DNA of 55,874 nucleotides from Betaproteobacteria bacterium RIFCSPLOWO2_12_FULL_68_19 (GTDB taxonomy: Bacteria > Pseudomonadota > Gammaproteobacteria > Burkholderiales > SG8-39), in contig MERP01000102.1 in the NCBI GenBank assembly GCA_001772055.1, positions 1 to 55,874 of the forward strand, written 5' to 3'. A program made the position numbers and the translations under genes. The notes below the pieces were generated by a model. The model saw only the letters and a program-made list of their open reading frames with translations, was not told where the DNA came from and did no database searches. This document shows positions 2 to 14,500 of this stretch, piece after piece; within the stretch, counting starts at the first letter, position 1; every line of letters begins with the position of its first letter.

Positions 2-970
2 GGGCTGGAGAAGCGGATGGAAGGGCTCTCGCCGCTCGACGCCTTCTACGTCGCCGAGCGTATCTGCGGGGTCTGCTCGGTTGCGCACGGCCTGGGCTAC
101 TGCGAGGCACTGGAGCAGATCGCAGGTGTCGACGCCCCGCCGCGGGCCCGCCTCATCCGCAGCATCGCTCTCGAGCTGGAGCGGCTCTACAACCACGTCG
201 GCGACCTCGGCAACATTTGCGCCGGCGCCTCGTTCCACTACGGCACCGCCGCGGGCCTGCGCTTGAAGGAGCGCCTCCAGCAAATGAACGAGCGGCTCGC
301 CGGCAATCGCTTCCTCCGGGGCCTCGTGGTCCCGGGCGGTGTGCGCCTGGATCTCTCGGACGGGCTCCCCGGGGTCCTCGCCGCCACGCTCGGTGACACT
401 CTCGCCGGGCTCGACAGCTTGATGGGACGCATCGAAGGCAACCCGTCGGTCGTCGATCGGCTCGACGACACCGGCGTCCTCCAGCACCAGGCCGCGCTGG
501 ACCTTGCGGTCGCCGGCGTGGCGGCCCGGGCGAGCGGCGTGGACCGCGACGCGCGGCGCGACCATCCCCACGGCGCGTTCGCGGGTCCCGGGTCGCCCGA
601 ACTGCACGTCGTGACCGTTCCGGAGGGAGATGCAATGGCCCGCGTGACTGTCCGCGCCCTGGAGGCCCGCGAGTCGATCCGGCTCGTCGGCGAGCTCATC
701 CGGCGGCTCGAGCCGGGGCCGTTGCGGGTCGCCATCGCAGAACCGCTGCCCGGCGCCCGCATTGGGATTTCGGCCATCGAGTCGGCGCGAGGCGAGGCGG
801 TCCATTGGCTTCGCACCGACGCCGGCGGGCGCGTGGAGCGATACCACCTGCGCTCGCCGAGCTACCACAACTGGCCCGCCGTGGCGCTCGCCGCCGAAAC
901 AGCGATCGTCCCGGACTTCCCGCTGGTCAACAAGAGCTTCGAGCTCTGCTACTCGTGCACGGATCGCTGA
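2..970 (+). CDS. group-4 [NiFe]-hydrogenase large subunit (HycE/EchE/CooH-like, NuoD-related); 5' end lies outside the window
   Basis: The frame is open from the window edge (GLEKRMEG...). It carries ERICGVCSVAH near the N-terminal part and ends ...PDFPLVNKSFELCYSCTDR, so both CxxC Ni-Fe ligand pairs are present. It stops right after the Arg, with no C-terminal processing extension. Confidence 0.85.
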   Translation, partial: GLEKRMEGLSPLDAFYVAERICGVCSVAHGLGYCEALEQIAGVDAPPRARLIRSIALELERLYNHVGDLGNICAGASFHYGTAAGLRLKERLQQMNERLAGNRFLRGLVVPGGVRLDLSDGLPGVLAATLGDTLAGLDSLMGRIEGNPSVVDRLDDTGVLQHQAALDLAVAGVAARASGVDRDARRDHPHGAFAGPGSPELHVVTVPEGDAMARVTVRALEARESIRLVGELIRRLEPGPLRVAIAEPLPGARIGISAIESARGEAVHWLRTDAGGRVERYHLRSPSYHNWPAVALAAETAIVPDFPLVNKSFELCYSCTDR

Positions 971-971
971 C

Positions 972-1820
972 ATGCTGCGTATCCTGATAAACGCGCTTCG
1001 CACCGGCGTGGTCACGACCCGCTACCCCGCGGAGCCGCGCGTGCCACCGAATCGCTTTCGGGGGGCGCCCATCCTTTGCCCCGGCAGCAGCCTGCCTCCT
1101 CCCGCCGTCTGCCCTACGGGGGCGCTCACAGAACATTTCGACGCTGGCCGTCGCCACGTCGCCCTCGACCTCGCACGGTGCGTCTTCTGCGGCCGCTGCG
1201 CCGAGGATCCCTGGGCCGGCGCGATCACGATGGGACGCGACTTCGAGCTCGCGGCGCGCACTCGCGCCGACCTTCGGATCGAGGTCGTGGCCGATGACCC
1301 TGCCGTCCCGGCGGCGGGACCCGCACCCGATCCGGAAGCCGAGGCCGCCCGCGCCTCGTCCGAGATCCACCGGGTGCTCGGCCGGTCGCTGCATCTTCGC
1401 CACCTCGACGCGGGCTCGTGCAACGCCTGCGACTGGGAGCTCGCCGCCCTGTTGAATCCGGTGTACGACGTTCGCCGCCTCGGCATCGACTTCGTCGCCT
1501 CCCCGCGCCATGCGGACGGGGTCGTGGTCACCGGCCCGGTCACGCGCAACCTGGAGAGCGCCGTCCGCCGCACGGTCGAGGCCATCCCCGACCCGCGCAT
1601 CGTGATCGCCGTCGGAGCCTGCGCCGCCTCCGGGGGCATCGTCGGGCAGGGATATGCCAGCGCCGGCGGTGTCGACCAGGTCCTGCCTGTCGACGTCTAC
1701 ATTCCTGGCTGCCCGCCGCGTCCGGAAGCCATCCTCTTCGGCATCATGGTCGCGCTCGGGCGCCTCGACGCCCGCCGCCCGCCCCGCGATGGTAGAGCCC
1801 CAGAAAAACACCGGCATTGA
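972..1820 (+). CDS. fusion of a ferredoxin-like 4Fe-4S module (HycF/NuoI-like, one cluster motif) with a NuoB/HycG-like hydrogenase small subunit
   Basis: ATG 972 sits 1 nt after the upstream stop. The N-terminal part has ...AVCPTG...CVFCGRCAEDP. The C-terminal part has LDAGSCNACDWE, VGACAASGG and IPGCPP, the NuoB-type cluster ligands. Confidence 0.8.
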   Translation: MLRILINALRTGVVTTRYPAEPRVPPNRFRGAPILCPGSSLPPPAVCPTGALTEHFDAGRRHVALDLARCVFCGRCAEDPWAGAITMGRDFELAARTRADLRIEVVADDPAVPAAGPAPDPEAEAARASSEIHRVLGRSLHLRHLDAGSCNACDWELAALLNPVYDVRRLGIDFVASPRHADGVVVTGPVTRNLESAVRRTVEAIPDPRIVIAVGACAASGGIVGQGYASAGGVDQVLPVDVYIPGCPPRPEAILFGIMVALGRLDARRPPRDGRAPEKHRH

Positions 1821-1937
1821 AGTGAGCGTCGCCGAAGAACCTGAGCCATTGCGGTAAAATTCCGTGAAAATCAACCGCCTGCCTGCGGCGGCGTGTGGCC
1901 GATGCGTTCCGGTTTCCCGCCGCCTTCTCGAAAGGTA

Positions 1938-3965
1938 ATGGAACCCCTCTCCTCACCGCTCTTCGCCTCGCTGCTCGCGGCCGTATCGTGGCTCGTGATC
2001 GCGGCGCTGGCCCTGGTTCCCGCGGGCAACGCGTTCTTCGCCAGGCGGCTTGCGTTTCCGCTGGGCGCGCTGATCGGCCTCAGCCTCGCGAGTTTCGGCC
2101 TGCAATCGATCTGGCTGCACGCCGAGCAGCTCACGCTTCCGCTTGGACTGCCGGATCTTCCGTTTCACCTGCGCATCGATCCGCTGGCGGGCTTTTTCCT
2201 GCTCCTGCTCGGTTCGGTATCCGCCGGGATCTCGGTCTACGCGGGCGGATATTTCCGCACGGAAACCGCCGGCAGGCTCGCGCTCATCAGCCTGCAGTAC
2301 CACATGTTTCTCGCCAGCATGGCGTTCGTGATCCTCGCCGACGACGCCTACCTGTTCATGGTGGCGTGGGAAACGATGGCGCTGTCGTCCTATTTCCTCG
2401 TCACCACGGACCACGAGAGGCCGGCGATCCGCAGCGCGGGGTTCCTTTACCTGCTGGTCGCGCACCTGGGCGCGATCGCCATCCTGCTGTGCTTCGGCGT
2501 GATGCATGGCGGCGGCGACTACAGCTTCGACGCGCTGCGCGGCGCCGAGCTAACGCCGTTCTGGGCGACCGTGGCGTTCCTGCTCGCGTTCTTCGGCTTC
2601 GGCGCCAAGGCGGGAATGATCCCGCTGCACGCCTGGCTCCCAGAGGCGCATCCGGCGGCGCCCTCGCCCGTGTCGGCGCTGATGAGCGGCATCATGCTGA
2701 AGACCGCCATCTACGGCATGGTGCGCGTGATCTACGACCTGATCGGCGGCGTGCGCTGGGAATGGGGGATCGTGGTGCTCGCGATCGGCGCCGGCACCAC
2801 GCTCTTCGGCGTGCTGTACGCGCTCATGCAGCACGACCTGAAGCGGCTGCTCGCCTATCACTCGGTGGAGAACATCGGCATCATCCTCCTTGGCCTGGGG
2901 ATGTCGATGGTGTTCCTCGGCTTCGGGCATCCCCTCGCAGGGGCGCTCGGCCTCGTTGCCGCGCTCTATCACACGCTCAACCATGCGGTGTTTAAGGCGC
3001 TGCTGTTCCTGGGCGCGGGCTCGATCCTGCACGCGACGGGGCTGCGCAACCTGAACGACATGGGCGGCCTGATCCGCACCATGCCCAAGACCGCGCTCTA
3101 TTTCCTGATCGGCGCGCTCGCCATTTCGGCGCTGCCCCCGCTGAATGGCTTCGTGTCCGAGTGGCTGACGTTCCAGACTGCGCTGCAGGCGCCGCTGCTC
3201 GAGCACGGCGTGGTGCGCAGCCTCCTGCCGCTGTTCGCCGCGACGCTCGCGCTCGCCGGCGCACTCACCGCGATGTGCTTCGTCAAGGTCTACGGAATCG
3301 CCTTTCTCGGCCGGCCGCGCGAGGTCCGTCACCCGGCGCATGCGCGCGCCGAAGGCGGCGGTCACGACGCCGGATCGATGGAGCAGTACGGCATGGCCTG
3401 GCTCGCGGCCGGCTGCCTGGTGCTCGGCCTGTTCCCGACTTCGTTCCTGCTGATGCTGAACCGGGTCGGCGTCTCTCTTACCGGACAGGGCCTGTCGCCA
3501 GAGGCTCTGGAATCGAGCTGGCTGTGGCTGGTTCCCACCGCGCCCGAGCGGGCCAGCTACAGCCCGATCATCTTCCTGCTCGTGGTGCTCGCCGTAGTGC
3601 TGATCACCATCCGGCTGGTGCGCGGGTTCTACCACGGGCGCGTGCGCGTGGCCGACCCCTGGGACTGCGGCTTTCCGGAGCAGACGACGCGCATGCAGGA
3701 CACGGCGGACGCCTTCGGCCAGCCGATCCGGCACGTGTTCGGCCCGCTGTACCTGATGAAGCGCCACCTGCCCGGGCCCGAGGAAGCGAACCCGAGGTAC
3801 TCGATCAAGATCGAGGACCGCCACTGGTACTGGCTTTACCTCCCGGTGGCGCGGCTCGCGGACTACGCGTCCTCGAAGGTCGGGCTGCTGCAGCGCGGCC
3901 GCATCAGTATTTATCTGCTCTATAGCTTCCTGACCCTCATTGCCTTGTTGATTTTTGTTCGATGA
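1938..3965 (+). CDS. hyfB: hydrogenase-4 component B-like membrane subunit (NuoL/Mrp antiporter-like)
   Basis: About 675 aa and polytopic. It has typical antiporter-like motifs (WETMALSSYFLV, HAWLPEAHPAAPSPVSALMSG). The internal ATG 1938 (MEPLSSPLF) is preferred over the ORF-track start at 1893. Confidence 0.85.
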   Translation: MEPLSSPLFASLLAAVSWLVIAALALVPAGNAFFARRLAFPLGALIGLSLASFGLQSIWLHAEQLTLPLGLPDLPFHLRIDPLAGFFLLLLGSVSAGISVYAGGYFRTETAGRLALISLQYHMFLASMAFVILADDAYLFMVAWETMALSSYFLVTTDHERPAIRSAGFLYLLVAHLGAIAILLCFGVMHGGGDYSFDALRGAELTPFWATVAFLLAFFGFGAKAGMIPLHAWLPEAHPAAPSPVSALMSGIMLKTAIYGMVRVIYDLIGGVRWEWGIVVLAIGAGTTLFGVLYALMQHDLKRLLAYHSVENIGIILLGLGMSMVFLGFGHPLAGALGLVAALYHTLNHAVFKALLFLGAGSILHATGLRNLNDMGGLIRTMPKTALYFLIGALAISALPPLNGFVSEWLTFQTALQAPLLEHGVVRSLLPLFAATLALAGALTAMCFVKVYGIAFLGRPREVRHPAHARAEGGGHDAGSMEQYGMAWLAAGCLVLGLFPTSFLLMLNRVGVSLTGQGLSPEALESSWLWLVPTAPERASYSPIIFLLVVLAVVLITIRLVRGFYHGRVRVADPWDCGFPEQTTRMQDTADAFGQPIRHVFGPLYLMKRHLPGPEEANPRYSIKIEDRHWYWLYLPVARLADYASSKVGLLQRGRISIYLLYSFLTLIALLIFVR

Positions 3966-4909
3966 ACCAGCTTCCCGGTATCGCGCTCCAGGTACTCCAG
4001 TCGGTGCTGGTGGTGCTCGTCGCGCCGCTGGTAATGGGCTGGGTGAATATCTGCCGCGCGTGGCTGCAGAACCGCTCCGCGCCGAGCATCTGGCTGCCGT
4101 ACTACACGTTGGCGAAGCTGTTCCACAAGGATGCGGTGATCGCCAACACCGCCTCGCCGCTGTTTCGCCTTACGCCCTACATTCTTTTCGGCTGCATGTG
4201 GCTCGCAGCGGGCATCGTGCCGGTGCTCGCCACCGACGTGCCGTTCGCGCCCGCCGCGGACATCATCGCGCTGGTCGGCGTGTTCGCCGTGGCGCGGGTA
4301 TTCAGCGCGCTCGCAGCGATGGACACCGGCACCTCGTTCGGCGGCCTCGGCGCGCGCCGCGAGATGATGATCGGCTTCCTGGCCGAGCCCGCCATGCTGA
4401 TGACGCTGTTCACCGCGGCGTTCATCTCGGGCTCGACCCAGCTGCCCACGATCGTCGAGACGCTCGCGCACCGCGAGTTCGCGATCTACCCGAGCCTCGC
4501 TTTCGCCGCGGTCGCCTTCCTGATGGTGCTGCTCGCGGAGAACGCGCGCATCCCGGTGGACAATCCGGCCACCCACCTCGAGCTCACCATGATCCACGAG
4601 GCGATGATCCTCGAGTACTCGGCGCGGCATCTCGCGCTGATCGAATGGGCCGTGGCGATCAAGCTGGTCGCCTACATGGCGATCGGCTTCGCCCTGTTCC
4701 TGCCCTGGGGCATCGCGCCGGCGGGGGACTGGAGCGCACTGCCGCTCGCGCTCGCCGCGCTGGGGGCGAAGCTCGCGCTCGCCGGGACGGGACTGGCGCT
4801 GCTCGAGACCCTGCTCGCGAAGATGCGCATCTTCCTGGTCGCCGAGTTCCTGTCCACCGCCTTCCTGCTCGGCGTGCTCGGCATGCTGATCCACTTCCTG
4901 GTGCGCTGA
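3962..4909 (+). CDS. hyfC: hydrogenase-4 component C / formate hydrogenlyase subunit 4-like membrane subunit (NuoH-like)
   Basis: 315 aa and polytopic. Its start overlaps the hyfB stop in an ATGA. It shows HycD/HyfC-like sequence (DNPATHLELTMIHEAMILEYS). Confidence 0.85.
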   Translation: MNQLPGIALQVLQSVLVVLVAPLVMGWVNICRAWLQNRSAPSIWLPYYTLAKLFHKDAVIANTASPLFRLTPYILFGCMWLAAGIVPVLATDVPFAPAADIIALVGVFAVARVFSALAAMDTGTSFGGLGARREMMIGFLAEPAMLMTLFTAAFISGSTQLPTIVETLAHREFAIYPSLAFAAVAFLMVLLAENARIPVDNPATHLELTMIHEAMILEYSARHLALIEWAVAIKLVAYMAIGFALFLPWGIAPAGDWSALPLALAALGAKLALAGTGLALLETLLAKMRIFLVAEFLSTAFLLGVLGMLIHFLVR

Positions 4910-4911
4910 GC

Positions 4912-5574
4912 ATGGCGCTTCCGCTCAGCGGCCAGATCGTCAACCTGCTCGCGGCGCTGCTGCTGCTGCTCGCGTTCGCGATGCTCGCGCAGCGCCGCGT
5001 GCTGACGCTGATCAAGCTGTTCGCCTGGCAGGGCGCGGCGCTCGCCGTGTCGACGGCGATCGTGGCGTACGCCACCGGGCAGACGCACCTGTATTTCTCG
5101 GCTGGTCTCACCGTGGCGCTGAAGGTGGTCCTCATCCCCTGGCTGCTGCACCGCCTCATCGACCAGCTGCAGGTGCGCTGGGACATCGAGACCCTGCTCA
5201 ACATCCCGACCACCATGCTCGCGGGCATCGGCCTCGCGATCTTCGCCTTCTCGCTCGCCACCCCGATCTCGCAGATGGCGAGCACCATCACGCGCTCGAC
5301 GCTCGGCATCGCCCTCGCCAGCGTGCTGCTGTCCTTCCTGATGATGATCGTGCGCCGCAAGGCGGTACCGCAGGTGATCGGCTTCCTGTCGATGGAGAAC
5401 GGCCTGTTCTTCGCCGCCACCAGCGCCACCTACGGCATGCCGCTGGTGGTCGAGCTCGGCGTGGCGCTCGACGTGCTCGTCGGCACCTTCATCTTCGGCA
5501 TCTTCTTCTTCCACATCCGCGAGCAGTTCGACAGCCTCGACATCCGCCACATGGAGAAGCTCAAGGAAGACTGA
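4912..5574 (+). CDS. hyfE: hydrogenase-4 membrane component E-like (NuoK-related)
   Basis: Internal ATG 4912 lies 2 nt after the hyfC stop. The product is 220 aa and hydrophobic (MALPLSGQIVNLLAALLLLLAF...GFLSMENGLFF). Confidence 0.8.
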   Translation: MALPLSGQIVNLLAALLLLLAFAMLAQRRVLTLIKLFAWQGAALAVSTAIVAYATGQTHLYFSAGLTVALKVVLIPWLLHRLIDQLQVRWDIETLLNIPTTMLAGIGLAIFAFSLATPISQMASTITRSTLGIALASVLLSFLMMIVRRKAVPQVIGFLSMENGLFFAATSATYGMPLVVELGVALDVLVGTFIFGIFFFHIREQFDSLDIRHMEKLKED

Positions 5575-7022
5575 TGGAGATCGCGCTCGTCCTGGGAATG
5601 CCGCTCGCGGGAGGGCTGGTGCTCGCGCTGTTCGGCCACCAGCGCTGGGCGCCGGAGGCGAGTGCCTTCATGAGCTTCGGGACGCTCGCCGCGGCCGCGC
5701 TGCTGACCGCGCGCGTGATCGCCGACGGCCCGATGACGGCGCTCAACGAGCAGGTGTTCGTCGACCCGTTCAACGTGTTCCTGGTCGCGCTTACGGCGTT
5801 CGTCGCCTTCACCACGGCGCTCTTCTCGCGACCCTACATGCGCACCGAGGAGCATCACAAGCGGGTCAACAGCGCGCGCCTGCGCCTCTACCACAGCATG
5901 TACCAGCTGTTCACCTTCATGATGCTGCTCACGCTGCTGTCGAACAACGTCGGCATGCTCTGGGTGGCGATGGAGGGCGCGACGCTGTCGACGGTGCTGC
6001 TGGTGTCGCTGTATCGCACGCCAGCCAGCCTGGAGGCCGCCTGGAAGTACTTCATCCTGTGCTCGGTGGGCATCGCGCAGGCGCTGTTCGGCACCATCCT
6101 GCTCTACTTCGCCGCCGAGAAGGTGCTCGGCCCCGGCGGCAACGCGCTGCTCTGGACGCACCTGCACGAGGTGCGCGGGCAGCTCGAGCCGACGGTGCTG
6201 TCGCTCGCCTTCGTGTTCCTGCTGGTCGGCTACGGCACCAAGGTGGGCCTGGTGCCGCTGCACAACTGGCTGCCCGACGCGCACGCCGAGGGCCCGACCC
6301 CGATCTCGGCGGTGCTTTCGGGGCTGCTCCTGAACGTGGCGCTGTACGCCGTGGTGCGCAGCAAGGTGCTGGTCGACGGCGCCCTGGAGCGCAACTTCTC
6401 CGGCGGGCTGATGATGGGCTTCGGGCTGCTCTCGGTGGTGGTGGCGGCGTTCTTCCTCTCGCGCCAGAAGGACATCAAGCGCATGTTCGCCTACTCGTCG
6501 GTCGAGCACATGGGGATCATGACCTTCGCCTTCGGCATGGGCGGGCCGGTCGCTGCGTTCGCCGGCCTGCTGCACATGACCGTGCACTCGCTCACCAAGT
6601 CGGCGATTTTCTTCGCCGTCGGCCACGCGTCGCAGGCCTGCGGCACGCAGGACATGGCATCGATCCGCGGCCTGATCCAGCAAAGCCCGACCATCGGCTG
6701 GGGGCTCGCCCTCGGCACGCTGGCGATCCTCGGCATGCCGCCCTTCGGCGTGTTCACCAGCGAGTTCATGGTCCTCACCACGGCGATGCGCGAGCATCCC
6801 TGGGCGACCCCGTTCCTGCTCGTTGCGCTCGGCGTGGCGTTCGCCGCGATCTTCGGCAAGGTCCAGCCGATGGTATTCGGCGAGACCACCGCGCAGCGCC
6901 AGACGCACCCGCCGGCGCTCGTCCCGGTGTTCGTGCACCTCGCTATCGTGCTGATGCTGGGCCTTTACATCCCGCCTTACCTGGTCGACTGGTACCGCCA
7001 GGCCGCAGCGTTCATCGGATGA
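5574..7022 (+). CDS. hyfF: hydrogenase-4 component F-like membrane subunit (NuoM/NuoN antiporter-like)
   Basis: 482 aa. The ATG overlaps the hyfE stop. It has antiporter-like motifs (HNWLPDAHAEGPTPISAVLSG, FAYSSVEHMGI). Confidence 0.85.
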   Translation: MEIALVLGMPLAGGLVLALFGHQRWAPEASAFMSFGTLAAAALLTARVIADGPMTALNEQVFVDPFNVFLVALTAFVAFTTALFSRPYMRTEEHHKRVNSARLRLYHSMYQLFTFMMLLTLLSNNVGMLWVAMEGATLSTVLLVSLYRTPASLEAAWKYFILCSVGIAQALFGTILLYFAAEKVLGPGGNALLWTHLHEVRGQLEPTVLSLAFVFLLVGYGTKVGLVPLHNWLPDAHAEGPTPISAVLSGLLLNVALYAVVRSKVLVDGALERNFSGGLMMGFGLLSVVVAAFFLSRQKDIKRMFAYSSVEHMGIMTFAFGMGGPVAAFAGLLHMTVHSLTKSAIFFAVGHASQACGTQDMASIRGLIQQSPTIGWGLALGTLAILGMPPFGVFTSEFMVLTTAMREHPWATPFLLVALGVAFAAIFGKVQPMVFGETTAQRQTHPPALVPVFVHLAIVLMLGLYIPPYLVDWYRQAAAFIG

Positions 7023-8560
7023 AGGACTTTCTTCCCGACGCCGAGCGGCTGCCAGGGGCCCTGCCCGCCTGGCACGCGTCGATCCAGGCCGAGAGCCTGA
7101 GGGCAGTGGCGCAAAAGGCCCGCGAGGGCAAGGCGCGGCTGGTCGCGCTCTGGGCAAGCGATGAAACGACGCGCGGCGCAGGCTATGCCGTGCACCTCGC
7201 GCTGGCGCTGCCCGCGGGCCTGCTGTGGCTGAGCGCCCCGCTCGAGCGCGAGCATCCACGCTACCCGGGCATCGCAGACTTGTTCCCCTGCGCGGCCCGC
7301 ATGCAGCGCGCTGCGTACGACCTGGTGGGCGTGCACGCCCAGGACAACCCGGACCACCGCAAGTGGCTGCGCCACGCCGCCTGGCCGGGCGGACAGTTCC
7401 CGCTGCGCAAGGACTTCGACGCCGACGCGCGCCCCGAGCCGGGCGAAGACCACTATCCGTTCGTGCGCGTGGAGGGCGAAGGGGTGCACGAGATCGCGGT
7501 CGGGCCTGTCCACGCCGGCACCATCGAGCCGGGGCATTTCCGCTTCTCGATCGTCGGCGAGAAGGTCCTGAGGCTCGAGGAGCGCCTGGGCTACAAGCAC
7601 AAGGGCATCGAGAAACGCTTCGAAGCCCTGTCCGCCGACGAGGGCGCGCGCCTGGCGGGCCGCGTGAGCGGCGACTCGACGGTCGCCTACGCCTGGGCCT
7701 ATGCCATGGCGCTCGAGGCGGCGAGCGGCGTGCAGCCCCCGGCGCGCGCCCTTTCCCTGCGCGGCATCGCGCTGGAGCTCGAGCGCCTCGCCAACCACCT
7801 CGGCGATCTCGGTTACCTCGGCAATGATGTCGCGCTCTCGTTCGGGTTCTTCCAGTTCTGGCGGCTGAAGGAGGACCTGCTGCGGCTCAACCACGAGCTG
7901 CTCGGGCACCGCTACCTCATGGACTTCGTCGTGCCCGGCGGCGTGGCGCGCAACCTCGAGCCCTCTGCCCTGGCGCGCCTTCTTGACGCGCTCGGCAGCA
8001 TCGAGCGCGAGGTCGCGACGCTGCGCACGATCTATGACGAGCATGCCGGCGCCCAGGACCGCTTCATCATGACCGGGCAGGTGACGCTGGAGCTCGCCGC
8101 GCAGTTCGGGCTCGCCGGCCTCGCCGGACGCGCGAGCGGCCAGGCGTACGACCTGCGCGCCGACCATCCCGTGCCGCCTTACGCAGAGCTCGAGGTGCGC
8201 GTCGCGGGACACATCCGCGGCGACGTCGCGGCGCGCGTCTCGGTGCGCTTCGAGGAGATCACCGAGTCGCTGCGCCTCATGCGTGCCCTCGGCGCCGCGC
8301 TCCCGGGCGGCGAGCTGCGTGTTGCCGTCGCGGCGCCGCGCGCAGGTCAGCTCGGCTGCGGCTGGGTCGAAGGCTGGCGCGGCGAGGTGTTCGTGGCCCT
8401 CGACGCCGCGCAGGGAGGAAGGCTGCACCGCGTTCATCCGCACGACCCGTCGTGGCAGAGCTGGCCGCTGCTCGAGCGGGCGGTGCTCGGCAACATCGTC
8501 CCGGACTTCCCCCTGGTCAACAAGTCGTTCAATCTCTCGTACAGCGGACACGACCTCTAG
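7019..8560 (+). CDS. HyfG/HycE-like large subunit homologue (NuoC-NuoD fusion type) lacking all four Ni-Fe cysteine ligands
   Basis: The ATG overlaps the hyfF stop in an ATGA. It has an N-terminal NuoC-like part and then LGYKHKGIEKRFE. The L1 position reads GRVSGDSTVAY instead of RxCGxCxxxH. The C-terminus reads SFNLSYSGHDL instead of ...CxxCxxR. Confidence 0.85.
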   Translation: MKDFLPDAERLPGALPAWHASIQAESLRAVAQKAREGKARLVALWASDETTRGAGYAVHLALALPAGLLWLSAPLEREHPRYPGIADLFPCAARMQRAAYDLVGVHAQDNPDHRKWLRHAAWPGGQFPLRKDFDADARPEPGEDHYPFVRVEGEGVHEIAVGPVHAGTIEPGHFRFSIVGEKVLRLEERLGYKHKGIEKRFEALSADEGARLAGRVSGDSTVAYAWAYAMALEAASGVQPPARALSLRGIALELERLANHLGDLGYLGNDVALSFGFFQFWRLKEDLLRLNHELLGHRYLMDFVVPGGVARNLEPSALARLLDALGSIEREVATLRTIYDEHAGAQDRFIMTGQVTLELAAQFGLAGLAGRASGQAYDLRADHPVPPYAELEVRVAGHIRGDVAARVSVRFEEITESLRLMRALGAALPGGELRVAVAAPRAGQLGCGWVEGWRGEVFVALDAAQGGRLHRVHPHDPSWQSWPLLERAVLGNIVPDFPLVNKSFNLSYSGHDL

Positions 8561-8563
8561 GCC

Positions 8564-9103
8564 ATGTACCACCTCCTGAAGCAGATCGCCAAGACCGGGA
8601 TCGTCAGCGAGCGAGCGCCGCAAGCCGACGAATCGCTGCGCCAGATCGGGCAACGGCTGCACGACGCGGCGCTCAAGCATCTCGGCAGGGCGCTGTGCGT
8701 GCGGCACGTGGACGCCGGGTCGTGCAACGGCTGCGAGCTCGAGATCCACGCCTGCAACAGCCCTTACTACAATCTGGAGCGCCTCGGCATCCGGTTCGTC
8801 GCCAGCCCGCGGCATGCCGACCTGCTGCTCGTGACCGGGCCGGTATCGGCCCACATGGAGACCGCGCTGCGCCGCACCTACGACGCGACGCCCGAGCCCA
8901 AGCTGGTGGTGGCGATCGGCGACTGCGGATGCACGGGAGGGATTTTCGGCGAGAGCTACGCGAGCCGGGGCGCGGTCTCGAAGGTGATCCCGGTGGACGT
9001 GGCCGTTCCAGGCTGCCCGCCGGCGCCTGCGGCCATCATCCAGGGAATCCTGACCGCGGTGAGCAGCGCTAGCGGCCGGAGCAGCTCTGCGGCATCGCGT
9101 TGA
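8564..9103 (+). CDS. HyfI/HycG-like small subunit (NuoB-like, 4Fe-4S)
   Basis: 179 aa with VDAGSCNGCELEI, IGDCGCTGG and VPGCPP, the NuoB/N2-type cluster ligands. Confidence 0.85.
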   Translation: MYHLLKQIAKTGIVSERAPQADESLRQIGQRLHDAALKHLGRALCVRHVDAGSCNGCELEIHACNSPYYNLERLGIRFVASPRHADLLLVTGPVSAHMETALRRTYDATPEPKLVVAIGDCGCTGGIFGESYASRGAVSKVIPVDVAVPGCPPAPAAIIQGILTAVSSASGRSSSAASR

Positions 9104-9461
9104 CGGGATAGCCCTTGCAGCTCCAGGAGACCTTGCCGCCCTGGAGCGAAGGCGTGAGGGCCACCTCGAGCGCGTTCTTCTCGTTCCAGCCCCGGATCGC
9201 GCCGTCCGCGCCGACGATCCATTTCATCTGGCCTTGCTTGGGATCGCTCTTCGGGGCGATCTTCACGCCGTTTCCGGCGCCGGCGAGCCCGCCCGACTTC
9301 TCCGCCGCCGCCGCGACCTGCTGCTTGGCCGGCTCGGCTCCCGCCACCAGCGCCTCGGCGGCCTCCTTCAGCTCCGCGCCCTGCATCTGCGGCAACACCA
9401 CCGCGACCACCAGGAATCCGATCAAGGCGAGTACTGCAACCACGAGCAAGCCGATGCGCAT
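9069..9461 (-). CDS. membrane-anchored pilin-like protein without a canonical prepilin leader
   Basis: Internal ATG 9461 is preceded by GGAGAGGGGA. The 130-aa product starts MRIGLLVVAVLALIGFLVVAVVLP. It has an Ala-rich helix and a C-terminal pilin-type disulfide loop, WSCKGYPVNAMPQSC. Confidence 0.6.
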   Translation of the reverse strand: MRIGLLVVAVLALIGFLVVAVVLPQMQGAELKEAAEALVAGAEPAKQQVAAAAEKSGGLAGAGNGVKIAPKSDPKQGQMKWIVGADGAIRGWNEKNALEVALTPSLQGGKVSWSCKGYPVNAMPQSCSGR

Positions 9462-9539: not shown

Positions 9540-9830
9540 ATGTCTTGCATGGTGACTCGGCAAATTCGTGTCAGCGGCCGCGTGCAAGGCGTCGGCTATC
9601 GCGCCGCCCTGCAGGCGCAGGCGCGCCGGGCCGGCGTGGCGGGCTGGGTGCGAAACCGCGCCGACGGCAGCGTCGAGGCGCTCGTGCACGGCCCCGCCGA
9701 CGCCGTGGAGGCGATCATCGCCTGGGCGCGGCGCGGCCCGCCCGGGTCGCTGGTGGCGGACGTCCAGATAACGCCCGCCGACGCCCGCGAGCTGCCGCAG
9801 GCGCGCTTCGAGCTCAGGCCGACCGCCTAG
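9540..9830 (+). CDS. acyP: acylphosphatase
   Basis: 96 aa with the VSGRVQGVGYR signature and WVRNRADGSVE. Confidence 0.85.
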   Translation: MSCMVTRQIRVSGRVQGVGYRAALQAQARRAGVAGWVRNRADGSVEALVHGPADAVEAIIAWARRGPPGSLVADVQITPADARELPQARFELRPTA

Positions 9831-10570
9831 GCCCTGGCGCGGCGCTTCAAGGCGTTGACGACCGAGAATTCCCACGGCCGGCAGGCGGCGAGCAGCGCCA
9901 CGCCGACGCGCTTGCCGCTCGGCACCGAAGAGTCGACCTCGGCGAATTCGTTGAACTCCCGCACCAGGCGCTCGAGGCGGCGTTTCAGGACCACGGCCGA
10001 CTCCGGCGAAAGCACGCGCGACTCGAAGCGCAGCAGCTCGAGCGGCGCGTCGAACCGGCCCTGGAGGAACTCCTGCATGACGCGGCGTCCATAGGCCTTC
10101 TTCACCGGCCCGCCGGGGCGCCAGAGGAAATCCTTGGGCACCCGCAGGCGCACGCGGTCGCGCGGGCCCCAGTCGATCAGCGCCAGTCTTTCGAGACGCG
10201 CGCAGGCGGCGGTCAACTCGGCACGCGAAATGGCGAACGCCTCGACGATCTCGCCGAAGCGCCAGTCGTTCTGCAGCAGCCAGAACACCGACAGCAGCCG
10301 CTCGTCCCTGGCGAGCGCCGCCTCCTGCTCCTGGCTGAGCTCGGCCGGCCCGGCCGCCGCCCCGCGGCTCATGCGCGCCACCTCGTCGAGCTCCAGCTCG
10401 AGCACGCCGAGGATCTGCTCGATGCGGCTCAGGGTGAAGCTGCCGCGCGAAAACATGCGCTTGACGCTCGCCTCGGACAAGCGCAGCTCGCGCGCCAGTG
10501 CGCCGTAGGTCAGGCCGCGCGCGCGCAGGCTCTTCTTCAGCGCGTCGACGAAGCGGCTGCGCGGCGGCAT
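9827..10570 (-). CDS. XRE-family (Cro/C1 HTH) transcriptional regulator
   Basis: The N-terminal HTH reads LTYGALARELRLSEASVKRMFSRGSFTLSRIEQI. ATG 10570 is preferred; the ORF-track start 10579 is a GTG. Confidence 0.75.
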   Translation of the reverse strand: MPPRSRFVDALKKSLRARGLTYGALARELRLSEASVKRMFSRGSFTLSRIEQILGVLELELDEVARMSRGAAAGPAELSQEQEAALARDERLLSVFWLLQNDWRFGEIVEAFAISRAELTAACARLERLALIDWGPRDRVRLRVPKDFLWRPGGPVKKAYGRRVMQEFLQGRFDAPLELLRFESRVLSPESAVVLKRRLERLVREFNEFAEVDSSVPSGKRVGVALLAACRPWEFSVVNALKRRARA

Positions 10571-10666
10571 GGGACGCACGGTATCACAATCCGATACTTT
10601 CCAGATTGGTATTGCATCGCGCCCATCCCCCTGCCGACAATCGGCGCCTCAAGGAGGAGCGACGCC

Positions 10667-11596
10667 ATGTCCGAGCCGCTGTCCCGCCCGCTGTCGGCAG
10701 CCGAGCTGTGCGATGCGATGCGCCGCGCGCGCGCCTTCGACGCGTCGCAGCTCGACCGGATCCTGCGCGTGGACGAGACGCGCGGCCTGGTGGAGGTGCA
10801 GGGCAGCGCGACCTGGCGCGGCCTCGCCGCCCGGTTGCGCCCGGAGGACCCCCGGGCCGGCGCGGTGCGGACCACCATGCCGACGGTGGGCGAAAGCATC
10901 GCCCGCAACGCCGCGGGCCCGGACGGACGGCCCGCGGTCATCCACGTCGAATCGCTCGCGCTGGTGACGCCCGACGGCGAGCTGCGCCGCCTGAGCAGGC
11001 AGAGCAACAGCGAGCTGTTCGCGCTCGCGGTCGGCGGGCAGGGAATATTCGGCGTGCCCTACAGCGTCACGTTGCGCATCGAGTCTCTCGCGCGCGCGGT
11101 GAGCGAGGCGCTCCCCGCCTCGCAGCCCGGCACGCCGGCGCCCGGCCGTTCCCTGCAGCTGCTCGTGCCGCCGGAGGCGCTGGAGCGATTCATCGCCGCG
11201 GCGCAGGAGCGCTGCGCCGAGTGGCGCGTCGCGCTCGAGGACCTGGCGGTACGCCGCACGCTGCAGGAGCAGGAGACGTTCCTGCGCTGGGCGCGGCGAG
11301 ACTATGCCGAAGTCGGGCTGCGGCTGGGCGGCACGGCGACGCTCGGGGGATCGCTCAAGGCGACGCAGCTGCGCCAGGGGCTGATCGACGCCGCCATCGC
11401 CGCCGGCGGCGCGTTCCACATCGCCTGCACGCCCGAGGCGACGCGCGCGCAGACCGAGGTCTGTTATCCGCAGCTCAGGCGCTTCATCGCGGAGAAGCGG
11501 CGCTTCGATCGCGACGAGCGGCTGGTCAATCCCTGGTATTGCCGGCAGCGCAGCCTGCTCGGGCGCGAGCCCTGCGAGTCGCGCTGGGCAGGCTAG
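10667..11596 (+). CDS. FAD-binding PCMH-type-domain-like protein, with the N-terminal part of the domain apparently missing
   Basis: ATG 10667 is preceded by AAGGAGGA. The segments VEVQGSATWRGLAARL...TVGESIARNAAGPDG...LVTPDGELRRLS...ELFALAVGGQGIFGV resemble the second half of FAD_binding_4 domains. Confidence 0.6.
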   Translation: MSEPLSRPLSAAELCDAMRRARAFDASQLDRILRVDETRGLVEVQGSATWRGLAARLRPEDPRAGAVRTTMPTVGESIARNAAGPDGRPAVIHVESLALVTPDGELRRLSRQSNSELFALAVGGQGIFGVPYSVTLRIESLARAVSEALPASQPGTPAPGRSLQLLVPPEALERFIAAAQERCAEWRVALEDLAVRRTLQEQETFLRWARRDYAEVGLRLGGTATLGGSLKATQLRQGLIDAAIAAGGAFHIACTPEATRAQTEVCYPQLRRFIAEKRRFDRDERLVNPWYCRQRSLLGREPCESRWAG

Positions 11597-14500
11597 AGCG
11601 CGGCGTACACGACCTGGACGTTCTCCGGCTCGAGCCACTCGCCCAGCTCGGCGAGCAGGCGGCTGTCGGGACGCACGCGCCAGGAATCGCCGAGCGCCAC
11701 CTGGCACACGGCCTTGCCGTTCTCGTAGAGCACCAGCACCTGGCAGGCGCCCTGGGCCGTGGAGCGATAAGGGGCAAGGACTTGCTGCAGGCGCTGGGCG
11801 TCGGCCCGGCCGTTCAGCGCGATGCGCAGCCGCGCCGCGTACCGCTCGCGCAGGGACTCGAGGTCGAGAAGCTCCTCGGCGGTGACGCGCATGCCGCCCG
11901 AGAACTCGTCGCGCTGCACCTTGCCCGCGACGACCAGCAGCGCGTCCTCCTTGAGCTTGTCGCGGTGCTTCTCGAACAGCTCGTTGAACACCGAGATTTC
12001 GAGCTGCGCGGTGCCGTCGTCCAGCATCACCACCATCATCCGTCCCCGGCGCGTCATCTGGCTGCGCGCGGAGGCGACGATGCCGGCCATCCAGCTGCGC
12101 TGCTCCGAAGGCGCAAGCCGGGCGAGCGGCGTGCGCGGGAAGCCCGCCAGCTCGCGCTCGTAGACCGAGAACAGGTGGCCGGAGAGGTAGAAGCCGAGCG
12201 CGGCCTTCTCTTCCAGCAGCACCTGTTTCCTGTCCCAGGGCGCCGCCTCGACGTACGCATGGGCACCGCCGCGCGGCGCCTCGGCTTCGCCGAACAGGCT
12301 GCTTTGCGATGCCTGCCGCTCGGCCTGCTCGGCCGCCTCGAGGGCGCGCGCCACCGACGCCAGCAGGCGCGCGCGGTTCGGGTCGACGCTGTCGAAGGCG
12401 CCGGCGCGAACCATCGCCTCGATCGCCCTGCGGTTGACGACGCGCCGGTCGACGCGCCGGCAGAAATCGAACAGGTCGCGGAACGGCCCCGCGCGGCGCG
12501 CCTCGACCACGGTCTGGATCGCCGACTCGCCGCTGCCGCGGATCGCGCCCAGGCCGTACAGGATCGTCTCCCGGTCGACCGGGACGAAGCGGTGCTCCGA
12601 CGTATTGACGTCCGGCGGCCGGATCTTCAGCCCGTTGGCGCTGGCATCCTCGTAGAACTGGCGCACCTTGTCGGTGTCGTCCATGACCGCCGAGAGGTTC
12701 GCCGCCAGGAACGCGGCAGCGTGGTGGGCCTTCATGTAGGCGGTCTGGTAGGCGAGCAGCGCATAGGCCGCCGCATGCGACTTGTTGAAGCCGTAGCCCG
12801 CGAATTTCTCCATCAGGTCGAAGAGCTGCGTTGCCTTGGCGCGGGCGAGGCCGTTCTGCTGCGCGCCGGCGACGAAGACGTCGCGCTGCTGCGCCATTTC
12901 CTCCGCTTTCTTCTTGCCCATCGCACGGCGCAGCAGATCGGCGCGGCCCAGCGTATAGCCGCCGATCACCTGCGCGATCTTCATCACCTGCTCCTGGTAG
13001 ACCATGATGCCGTAGGTCGGCCCGAGGATCGGCTCGAGCCGCGGGTCGAGATATTCGACGCGCTTGCCGTGCTTGCGCTCGATGTACTCGGGGATCAGGT
13101 CCATCGGGCCGGGCCGGTACAGCGCAACCAGGGCGATGACGTCCTCGAAGCGGTCGGGACGCGCGCGCTTGATGAGGTCGCGCATGCCGCGCGATTCCAG
13201 CTGGAACACGGCGGTCGTGCTGCCCGAGGAAAGCAGCTTGTAGGTCTGCGCGTCATCCAGGGGAATTTTTTCCAGAGAAAACCCCGGCTCGCCCAGGCCG
13301 CGCACGTAGCGCTCCGCCCAGTCCAGGATGGTGAGCGTGGTGAGCCCGAGGAAGTCGAACTTCACCAGGCCCACCGCCTCGACGTCGTCCTTGTCGAGCT
13401 GCGAGATGACGTTCGCCGTGCCCTCGGCGGCGTACAGCGGGCAGTAGTCGGTCAGGCGGCCCGGCGCGATGAGCACGCCTCCGGCGTGCATGCCGACGTT
13501 GCGCACCAGGCCCTCGAGCTTCTCGCCCAGCTCGAGCAGCTCCGCGACCTCGTCCTCGCTTTTCTCCCGCTCGGCGAGCAGCGGCTCCATCTCGCGCGCC
13601 ATCTGCAGCGTGATCATCTTGCCCGGCTGGACGGGGATCAGCTTCGCGAGCTGGTCGCAGAAGCTGTAGCCGAGGTCGAGCACCCGGCCCACATCGCGCA
13701 CCACCGCGCGCGCCGCCATGGTGCCGAAAGTGGCGATCTGCGAAACGCACTGCTCTCCGTACTTGTGGCGCACGTAGTCGATCACGCGGTCGCGGCCGTC
13801 CTGGCAGAAATCGATGTCGAAATCCGGCATCGAGACGCGCTCCGGGTTGAGGAAGCGCTCGAACAGCAGGTCGTAGCGCAGCGGATCGAGATTGGTGATG
13901 CCGAGCGAGTAGGCGACCAGCGACCCGGCGCCGGAGCCGCGACCCGGCCCGACCGGCACGCCGTTGGGGAATGCAGGCTCGCGTACCGCTCGGGCCCAGT
14001 TGATGAAATCGGCGACGATGAGGAAGTAGCCGGCGAAGCCCATCTGGATGATGGTCGCGAGCTCGAAGTCCAGCCGCTCCCGATAGCGCGCTTCCTGATC
14101 CAGCTTCCTTCTTGTCAGTCCTGCGTTCGCCTGGGCCCGCAGGTAGTCGTCGATCGACGTTCCCGGCGGCGTGGGGAAGTCCGGCAACCGGCTCCTGCCC
14201 AGCTCGATGTCGAGGTTGCAGCGCCGCGCGATCTCGACCGAGTTCTCGAGCGCCTGGGGGATGTCGGCGAACAGGCGCGCCATTTCCTCCTGGCTCTTGA
14301 AGTACTGCTCGGGGGTGAACAGCTTCGGCCGGCGCTGGTCTCCGAGCACGTAGCCCTGGGCGATGCAGACGCGCGCTTCGTGCGCCTTGAAGTCCTCGGG
14401 CGCGAGAAACTGCACCGGGTGCGTGGCGACTACCGGAGCGCCGGTGCGCGCGGCCAGCGCGACGCAACGCGACAGCACCGCCTCCCCGTTGGGCAACCCC

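Follow-up and report, generated by a model that had tools for sequence, protein, structure and literature searches.

Why would a bacterium keep a membrane complex built like an energy-converting hydrogenase when its large subunit lacks every cysteine that could hold the Ni-Fe site, and what is a hydrogenase gene pair with all of these cysteines doing directly in front of it? The question arises at the start of contig MERP01000102.1 of Betaproteobacteria bacterium RIFCSPLOWO2_12_FULL_68_19 (GCA_001772055.1). The window, by which we mean the whole stretch of 55,874 nt that was analysed, is this contig (C102) from its base 1, and the metagenome-assembled genome (MAG) it belongs to is 63% complete and 1.6 Mb in size. 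Eight unbroken open reading frames (ORFs) occupy positions 2-9103 on the forward strand. We conclude with high confidence that 1938-9103 is a complete operon of the HyqBCEFGI/Ehr type, a class that has already been described. Positions 2-1820 are the 3' end of a separate six-gene operon that continues from contig C7 of the same assembly, an Ech-like group-4 hydrogenase cassette of the sister clade (module 1). The features are as follows.

2-970, forward strand: module 1 large subunit, 3' 322 codons; NuoC-NuoD-type, group-4 [NiFe]-hydrogenase-like, with Complex1_49kDa and NiFeSe_Hases matches
972-1820, forward strand: module 1 small subunit, 282 amino acids (aa), a HycF-HycG fusion; NuoB match of 121 bits and formate hydrogenlyase Fe-S subunit match of 62 bits (residues 2-103)
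1821-1937, no strand: junction between the modules, 117 nt; TAAAAT at 1855-1860, GC-rich hairpin without a T-run at 1874-1892, GAAAGG ribosome-binding site before the ATG at 1938
1938-3965, forward strand: HyfB/HyqB, antiporter-like (NuoL/Mrp-type) membrane subunit; NF005086 (hydrogenase 4 subunit B), 864.5 bits, cut-off 667
3962-4909, forward strand: HyfC/HyqC, NuoH/HycD-like membrane subunit; PF00146
4909-5574, forward strand: HyfE/HyqE, small membrane subunit; NF008556 (hydrogenase 4 membrane subunit), E 3e-22, below cut-off, kept in all loci
5574-7022, forward strand: HyfF/HyqF, antiporter-like (NuoM-type) membrane subunit; NF005045 (hydrogenase 4 subunit F), 864.5 bits, cut-off 543
7019-8560, forward strand: Cys-less large subunit (HyqG/EhrL type), NuoC-NuoD fusion of 513 aa, assigned from domain matches, alignment, tree and AlphaFold2 fold
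8564-9103, forward strand: NuoB-like small subunit (HyqI/EhrS type), 179 aa, with four [4Fe-4S] cysteines and an N-terminal 15-residue HycF stub

A preliminary description of this DNA had called the eight genes intact and tightly spaced, mostly with 4-nt overlaps. The first point stood, as HyfB, HyfC, HyfE and HyfF are uninterrupted, but 4-nt overlaps occur at only two of the five junctions between Ehr genes; the others are two 1-nt overlaps and one 3-nt gap.

Identity of the Cys-less complex

The second large subunit reads GRVSGDSTVAY (nt 7658-7690) and SFNLSYSGHDL (nt 8525-8557). In a gap-free HMMER alignment with HycE (7Z0S_E) and in a 105-sequence MAFFT alignment, S217, S220, S507 and G510 fall exactly on C241, C244, C531 and C534 of HycE, confirming the earlier claim that all four Ni-Fe cysteines are gone. 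A mere shift of the cysteines was considered and rejected: just two occur in the whole protein (in FPCAARM and LGCGW), and both positions vary when 27 sequences are aligned. These results support the conclusion that the subunit does not bind Ni-Fe through canonical ligands, and there is very little likelihood of the Ehr complex splitting H2 at a canonical Ni-Fe centre.

Relatives were collected by scanning one genome per GTDB species, which gave at least 318 places encoding a relative of the Cys-less large subunit; we read the best 80 of these loci (59-79% identity). Most belong to MAGs of Burkholderiales, Gallionellaceae and Sulfuricellaceae, and one isolate, Sulfuricella sp. T08, is among them. 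They have an identical gene set and order as far as their contigs reach, as do clusters on pRL11 of Rhizobium johnstonii 3841 and in Variovorax. The substituted motifs are themselves kept across the 80 loci, as GR[VI]SGD[ST]TVAY and SFNLSY[SAT]G.DL. A HMMER search of 1.84 billion cluster representatives retrieved 1038 proteins at E<=1e-30, a threshold that over 8000 database proteins reach, and 123 of 401 sampled Burkholderiales genomes (~30%) have an SS2-like gene.

For the phylogeny, a quick IQ-TREE run combined the 100 best full-length representatives, the window protein, the full-length first large subunit of the related locus L022 and E. coli HycE/HyfG, with the organism's own NuoD as root and only neighbours of the query sampled. 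E. coli HycE/HyfG branch first, and the next clade (Shimodaira-Hasegawa-like approximate likelihood ratio test, SH-aLRT, 99) splits into two. The second large subunit falls in a clade of 82 rows (SH-aLRT 91), 76 of them without any of the cysteines, six with one and none with all four, while the first falls in a sister clade of 19 rows (support 93), 17 of which keep all four. The two large subunits of the window are thus ancient paralogues, 41-43% identical; a recent tandem duplication is ruled out by this identity and by their placement in different clades. The contig of the closest large-subunit relative (P0159, 92% identical) ends just upstream and does not cover the module 1 region. Gene set, ligand loss and tree placement agree on the assignment to the Ehr class that the preliminary description had suggested.

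Comparing the two clades column by column, we found that the only positions at least 90% conserved in the Cys-complete clade yet lost in the Cys-less clade are the four cysteines. Both clades share 40 further conserved columns, among them HycE E193 and R478 (EAPRG motif). The Cys-less clade also has two conserved aspartates of its own. One, D219, sits between the positions of the lost N-terminal cysteine pair; the other, D270, falls in a gap-free alignment on Asp139 of Thermus thermophilus Nqo4, a position at which Pyrococcus furiosus MbhL also has Asp. The pocket has thus been remodelled in a defined manner rather than decayed, although it lacks the quinone ligands of complex I.

The best sequence match among solved structures is HycE of the E. 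coli formate hydrogenlyase (204 bits, E 4.6e-59). An AlphaFold2 model of the large subunit alone (predicted template modelling score 0.84, mean predicted local distance difference test 78.7) gave the same best fold match, HycE 7Z0S_E (template modelling score 0.83), followed by fused NuoCD chains; no Ehr structure was among the PDB entries searched with it. Confidence was low at residues 144-193 (the beta1-beta2 region) and 492-513 (the C-terminus), and because these parts need partner subunits, the occupant of the former Ni-Fe pocket is not readable from the monomer model.

The NuoB-like partner keeps its [4Fe-4S] cysteines, as had been noted before: C54, C57, C121 and C151 are present, are invariant in 77-78 of 78 relatives and form a predicted N2-type [4Fe-4S] site. 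The earlier observation that the second set has no ferredoxin subunit of the HycF/HyfH type was also right as to the absence of the gene, but a remnant survives. The small subunit begins with MYHLLKQIAKTGIVS, which matches HycF and HyfH over their initial 15 residues (MFTFIKKVIKTGTAT, MLKLLKTIMRAGTAT), and then runs straight into the NuoB domain. Fuller forms exist. HycF, with two [4Fe-4S] clusters, and HycG are separate proteins in E. coli; the Ehr-type cluster of locus L099 and the upstream one of two clusters in Variovorax sp. PBL-E5 encode HycF-HycG fusions with both CxxCxxCxxxCP motifs; and the module 1 small subunit has a ferredoxin-like part with one complete [4Fe-4S] set (C..CP plus CVFCGRC) ahead of a NuoB-type domain with four cysteines. 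The Ehr/Hyq small subunit is thus a HycF-HycG fusion minus its cluster-binding body, with the electron wire trimmed stepwise and two clusters lost; a single predicted N2-type cluster is left, unconnected to the surface.

The membrane subunits retain the residues expected of ion-translocating proteins of this superfamily. HyfB keeps the Glu of transmembrane helix (TM) 5, the Lys of TM7, TM8 and TM12 and the SEW Glu. HyfF keeps the equivalents of NuoM K234 and E407, and the TM5 Glu, TM7 Lys, TM12 Lys and SE(W/F) Glu are kept in the antiporter-like subunits. At the NuoM K265 position in TM8, HyfF has Asn; because E. coli HyfF shares this Asn, it does not count as a defect. The acidic loop AE..R.P.D..EL..E..EYS of E. 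coli HycD and HyfC is also present in the HyfC encoded here.

We compared the window with related loci (55-78 comparisons per gene) and obtained median pairwise ratios of nonsynonymous to synonymous substitution rates (dN/dS) of 0.18 for HyfB, HyfC and HyfE, 0.135 for HyfF, 0.27 for the large subunit and 0.20 for the small subunit. The Ehr cluster is intact and under purifying selection in all six genes.

Could the second set nevertheless be a decaying paralogue, or the NuoD and NuoB of a standard complex I? Decay might be suspected from the missing catalytic residues, and NCBI and JGI names include "NADH-quinone oxidoreductase subunit C". Yet there are no frameshifts or stops, dN/dS lies at 0.13-0.27 and the motifs are kept in 80 loci, so the earlier judgement that this is not a decaying pseudogene cluster was sound, and the thousands of database matches speak against decay as well. 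In complex I, quinone is canonically bound by Tyr87 and His38 (Nqo4 numbering). A standard NuoD was rejected on several grounds: the protein scores 175 bits against NF004739, for which the cut-off is 360, it lacks the equivalents of Tyr87 and His38, it has a hydrogenase-type beta1-beta2 loop, and its tree placement is contrary. The organism also has a nuo operon of its own on contigs C9 and C62, with a NuoD that reads DRLDYVS on C9. That the second large subunit is no bona fide NuoD was thereby borne out, and we give decay or a standard complex I practically no credence.

The Cys-complete cassette upstream

The part of the first large subunit that lies in the window keeps ERICGVCSVAH and ends with SFELCYSCTDR and the stop codon. 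All four Ni-Fe cysteines are present, as previously described, and there is no C-terminal extension. Its full-length homologue in L022 aligns with HycE (7Z0S_E) over residues 57-510 (286 bits). The preliminary description spoke of a Cys-complete catalytic pair; Cys-complete holds, but the partner is the HycF-HycG fusion and not a plain small subunit. Wherever module 1 was available in full, it consisted of six genes, HyfB', HyfC', HyfE', HyfF', the large subunit (with a NiFeSe_Hases match) and the fused small subunit.

The missing part of this operon was located through the neighbours. The nearest relatives have, one after another, dcd, apbC, metG, one further gene, a Ser/Thr kinase gene, an opposite-strand ribbon-helix-helix (RHH) gene, an AT-rich box and the Ehr hyfB, with acyP and dnaE downstream. 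At its end, contig C7 carries dcd, apbC and metG, then this kinase gene (89% identical), the final codons of the RHH gene and, found via tblastn and synteny, the first 240 codons of a different HyfB that is only 43-45% identical to Ehr HyfB. The cassette was inserted recently, by horizontal transfer, between the Ser/Thr kinase gene and a resident Ehr operon. Between the window and L022, nucleotide identity is 92-99% in module 1 and 66-88% in the Ehr genes and dnaE, and the synonymous divergence (dS) is 0.09-0.16 in module 1 and 0.45-0.81 in the Ehr genes; between the window and locus L092, aa identity is 87-92% in module 1 and 61-78% in the Ehr genes. Homologues of the fused small subunit that are 85-96% identical in aa sequence lie on many metagenome contigs, some of them labelled Acidobacteria, Gemmatimonadaceae, Coriobacteriia or Betaproteobacteria, labels among which binning errors are possible. 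In locus L091 the cassette and an IS66 element are bracketed by two IS6-family (DDE_Tnp_IS240) copies in direct orientation (1171-1866 and 12693-13388, 93% identical), an arrangement that looks like a composite transposon.

Seen from the Ehr side, the association is rare: among 56 related Ehr loci with at least 1 kb of sequence upstream of hyfB, only L022 has the pair, and the cassette occurs in two of the 401 sampled Burkholderiales genomes. Seen from the cassette side, it recurs. We examined nine contexts of the cassette. It lies directly upstream of the Ehr cluster with a 117-nt gap in both the window and L022, with a 367-nt gap in L092, and with ~710 nt that include an extra small gene (1030-1740) in genome G317 (L103, G317:C71). 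In L095 it is 3.8 kb from the Ehr cluster, in L099 (labelled Gemmatimonadaceae) it is convergent with an Ehr-type cluster, and in L091, L096 and L098 it stands alone. The cassette is thus beside an Ehr-type cluster in six of the nine contexts, and the adjoining Ehr clusters are mutually only 59-80% identical. Because the association recurs from the cassette side, there may be a functional or regulatory link between the modules.

On the forward strand, no terminator-like site was present in 1821-1937, and a consensus promoter scan of the same stretch found nothing. The junction aligns with the native Ehr hyfB leader in L022 and L095, where TAAAAT (TATAAT in L095) is followed by a GC-rich hairpin, and L095 has a copy of this leader before module 1 as well. 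That TAAAAT may be a promoter element is a guess from the leader alignment alone. Given these leader features and the lack of a terminator-like site, both read-through and independent initiation are possible. In relatives L003, L004, L006, L014 and L033, a ~65-aa RHH (CopG-type) gene diverges from the Ehr hyfB, whose start follows at 10-20 nt an AT-rich box that does not vary, GGATGATAATATAATTC; gene and box are probably the native regulator and promoter of the Ehr operon. In the genome studied here, only the last codons of the RHH gene are left (C7:8716-8762), and the AT-rich box was deleted at the cassette insertion point.

A different pair of neighbouring clusters is found on plasmid 3 of Variovorax sp. 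PBL-E5 (L101/L102, 525073-542953), where two different six-gene clusters of the Ehr type lie in tandem, 3.4 kb apart. The upstream one encodes the two-cluster HycF-HycG fusion and a large subunit that reads IVGDSSVAY and SFDLSYCGNDL, and it is preceded by the same RHH gene (L102:6632-6829). Paralogous clusters of the superfamily therefore pair up even without a Cys-complete member.

Maturation genes were examined in six carrier genomes. hypC, hypD, hypE and hypF were absent above cut-off from this MAG (G000) and from the genome of L022 (G001), extending to the whole 63%-complete assembly the earlier remark that the window has no hyp genes. hypD and hypF were also absent from G317 (98% complete) and G402 (5.1 Mb), and were present in G403 (labelled Acidobacteria) and G404 (labelled Gemmatimonadaceae). 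Because none of the four betaproteobacterial carriers, some of which are incomplete genomes, yielded hypD or hypF, maturation of the module 1 hydrogenase in betaproteobacterial hosts is doubtful. Of the "real hydrogenase module" in the preliminary description, the complete set of cysteine ligands stands, and its status as an active hydrogenase is uncertain. The dN/dS of module 1 is 0.09-0.25, and its Cys-complete large subunit is under purifying selection in these four genomes.

These observations bear on the possibility that the two modules work as a pair, co-expressed and sharing a carrier such as ferredoxin or forming one supercomplex, so that electrons at the quinol level would be exchanged with H2 under ion coupling. 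The six contexts, which are independent and show five arrangements beside Ehr clusters of low mutual identity, would favour such a pair, as would the common strand, the 117-nt gap without a terminator-like site, the deletion of the native control region at the insertion point and the shared leader in L095; a pair would also give a chemical account of the hyq-dependent H2 evolution discussed below. However, the cassette is absent from 55 of the 56 Ehr loci with upstream sequence, and its two occurrences in Burkholderiales genomes compare with 123 for the SS2-like gene. It also occurs alone, it may not mature in hosts in which hypD and hypF were not found, the junction has a promoter-like element of its own, and the Variovorax clusters pair without a Cys-complete member. 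We consider cooperation of the two modules unlikely, and equally doubt that the cassette and Ehr/Hyq form a two-module system held side by side by selection. The earlier suggestion of a shared operon, and possibly shared electron flow, with a hydrogenase thus fails as a conserved partnership (one of 56 Ehr loci) while gaining from the recurrence on the cassette side.

In such a two-module system, Ehr/Hyq could for example use the membrane potential to drive quinol electrons to a low-potential carrier, from which the Ech-like module would make H2, or electrons could flow in the opposite direction. Three puzzles would then have one answer: why H2 evolution in Azorhizobium depends on hyq, why a cassette that is 85-92% identical has landed repeatedly beside deeply diverged Ehr operons, and why the leader is shared. 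If functional, the pairing would also point to the missing redox partner of Ehr. In a variant of this idea, the Cys-complete subunit in hosts without Hyp would be selected without a Ni-Fe cofactor and would represent a living intermediate from hydrogenase to Ehr. No candidate redox partner was found among the conserved neighbours, and the flanks are the housekeeping genes metG, apbC, dcd, dnaE and acyP.

Several further genes lie downstream of the Ehr cluster. A convergent 130-aa ORF without a Pfam match (9069-9461, reverse strand), previously labelled pilin-like, overlaps the final 35 nt of the small-subunit gene and is also called in the 92%-identical relative L090. It separates the Ehr cluster from an acylphosphatase gene (9540-9830, forward strand), which in 54 of the 80 related loci lies 3' of the Ehr cluster in the same orientation and which matches the N-terminal domain of HypF weakly, as expected of any acylphosphatase. 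Between acyP and dnaE is a divergent pair, a conserved 250-aa gene (9827-10579, reverse strand) and a gene with only the C-terminal part of a FAD_binding_4 domain (10571-11596, forward strand); both are kept in ~20 relatives.

Possible function of the Cys-less complex

What might the Ehr complex do without a Ni-Fe site? The operon encodes a membrane machine of six subunits that resembles complex I and descends from a group-4 [NiFe]-hydrogenase. We tentatively propose, at slightly below an even chance, that this machine is a minimal redox-coupled ion translocator. Its single cluster would trade electrons with a donor or acceptor on the cytoplasmic side that docks at the former HycF site. The other electron partner would be a small molecule, probably a membrane quinone, at the interface of the large subunit, the small subunit and HyfC. 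E170, D219, D270 and R454, the HyfC loop and the Lys/Glu chain of HyfB and HyfF would couple the change in charge to the movement of H+ or Na+, in either direction. The data show the identity and intactness of the complex, selection on it, the loss of its ligands and wire, and the mobility of the cassette; the electron partners and the ion coupling, like any cooperation of the modules, are inferred. Identity and mechanism taken as one, this explanation is on balance probable.

Several observations weigh against it. With HycF gone, there is no identified electron route to the NuoB-type cluster. In the gap-free alignment, Tyr87 of Nqo4 corresponds to Gly218 and His38 to Ile169, and because both ligands are absent, quinone reduction in the manner of complex I is unsupported. 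The former ligand positions vary inside the Cys-less clade (S/A; S/T/E/N; S/A; G), which speaks against a new metal site and is what a pocket that had simply been filled in would show. Conservation is higher in the membrane subunits than in the large subunit, as would also suit a purely ion-transporting role, and genetics in Azorhizobium caulinodans assigns H2 turnover to the Hyq complex. As to the upstream cassette, contigs C7 and C102 are unjoined in the assembly, and ~5 kb of module 1 is missing between them.

Some of these points would equally suit a complex that is redox-silent, namely a Mrp-like cation/proton transporter for pH or ion homeostasis, in which the arm is a structural or regulatory cap and the cluster is structural or a sensor of redox state or O2. 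With the Ni-Fe site and both HycF clusters lost, electrons have no path left to the surface, the residues at the former ligand positions vary, and the membrane subunits are the most conserved (dN/dS 0.13-0.18 compared with 0.27 for the large subunit). In addition, a preprint reports that all genes of a Methylocystis complex classed by HydDB as group 4f are induced 16- to 23-fold at pH 5, and its large-subunit motif reads ...AARVS where R[IV]C is expected (bioRxiv 10.1101/2025.08.29.672306); from this motif alone we infer that it may be of the Ehr type. On the other hand, the cluster cysteines are invariant in nearly all relatives, and the HyqI orthologues keep them as Cys-55, -58, -112 and -152 (PMC3357923). 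The putative proton-relay residues near the former active site are conserved, two aspartates were gained, and Mrp antiporters function without any such arm. A purely transporting role is unlikely in our view.

A catalytic role in H2 metabolism was proposed for the related Hyq complex. In A. caulinodans, the hyqRBCEFGI operon of the nif regulon encodes six matching structural proteins (HyqBCEFGI, AZC_4355-4360). Without it, cells grow more slowly on N2, and a hupSL mutant evolves ~80% less H2 under microaerobic conditions (Ng 2009, PMC2650096; Sprecher 2012, PMC3357923). The preliminary description stated that Cys-less relatives have no demonstrated substrate, which overlooks this literature and its H2-linked deletion phenotypes, although no enzyme was purified and the authors themselves term the catalytic site speculative. 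Following the A. caulinodans proposal, the Cys-less complex would be an H2:quinone oxidoreductase or "endo-hydrogenase" with a non-canonical catalytic site. Both phenotypes speak for it, as does the tree, in which P0028, the nearest representative of the pRL11 hyq-type cluster, falls in a 20-row subclade that also holds the window protein. But all four Ni-Fe ligands are absent and their replacements vary, the phenotypes can be indirect, and hyp genes were not found in the carriers studied here. We judge this reading quite improbable and prefer a redox-coupled ion translocator.

Comparison with known systems

The closest described group is the Ehr class, Cys-less relatives of group-4 hydrogenases that are close to group 4f and of unknown function, reported from Nitrospira (PMC10284858), from Sulfobacillus with six syntenic genes (PMC4378227), from Mycobacterium tuberculosis as Rv0081-87 (PMC6728331) and from bacteria of the candidate phyla radiation. 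As in the window, the large subunit of this class lacks RxCGxCxxxH and DPCxxCxxH/R (PMC10284858, PMC4378227, PMC6728331, bioRxiv 10.1101/2019.12.18.881540). Ehr is a broad class with several subunit sets, of which the window represents the six-gene hyfBCEFGI subtype with the NuoB-type cluster kept.

Within this class the kinship with Hyq is close: six genes in the same order, a NuoC-NuoD fusion of ~504-513 aa and four small-subunit cysteines at almost equal positions. We checked it through R. johnstonii pRL11 rather than through the A. caulinodans sequence itself; the hyq-type cluster on pRL11 has a matching gene order, is 46% identical and reads GRTSGDSTVAY and SFNCSYSGHDL. Ehr and Hyq have also been listed together as lacking canonical Ni-Fe ligands (Degli Esposti, PMC4758237). 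Unlike hyq, the window has no hyqR-type activator ahead of the operon (its relatives have the RHH gene) and no nif context, and it has the Cys-complete cassette upstream.

The hyfBCEFGI genes of Cupriavidus metallidurans CH34 (Rmet_4666-4671) and C. necator H16 (H16_A2196-A2201), which were judged unlikely to serve lithotrophic growth (PMC2864759), share the gene set and order and are likewise from Burkholderiales; the large subunits of the CH34 chromid copy and of a copy in C. necator N-1 are 56% and 60% identical to that of the window. These strains differ in being cultured and in having hyp genes for other hydrogenases, and no adjoining Cys-complete cassette has been reported in them, their flanks not having been inspected.

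E. coli Hyc (7Z0S) and Hyf (group 4a) are the best structural match of both large subunits, and the pump residues of HyfB and HyfF are identical in kind. However, HycE/HyfG branch outside the clade that unites the two large subunits of the window, and no HyfA/HycB, HyfD, HyfH/HycF, HyfJ, HycI or FdhF is encoded within 1938-9103 (formate and CO dehydrogenases were not searched genome-wide). With the complex I core, the Ehr complex shares homologous subunits, the N2-type cluster, the Asp at the position of Nqo4 Asp139 and the antiporter-like Lys/Glu chain. It differs in having no NuoE, NuoF, NuoG, NuoI, NuoA, NuoJ, NuoK or NuoN and in its hydrogenase-type beta1-beta2 loop (GPVHAGTIEPGHFRF).

Module 1 resembles HydDB group 4f (Ehf) in being a Cys-complete six-gene cluster with no partner dehydrogenase and with Ehr as its sister clade, as the literature says of 4f. 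Judged by the tree and the gene set, it may belong to that group.

Ehr/Hyq complexes are very common; they lie on the evolutionary path between membrane hydrogenases and complex I and are found in Cupriavidus, rhizobia, Nitrospira and M. tuberculosis. The practical value of this particular locus is low, as it comes from an uncultured MAG and model strains already carry the operon. To the known systems it adds a detailed view of the change from hydrogenase to Ehr, which consists of the four cysteines, two gained aspartates and a deleted ferredoxin body. The four-column signature with its two aspartates, the HycF stub and a mobile Cys-complete cassette found recurrently beside Ehr operons, in hosts in which hyp genes were not found, go beyond the known picture; they are leads within a class that is already described rather than a new kind of system.

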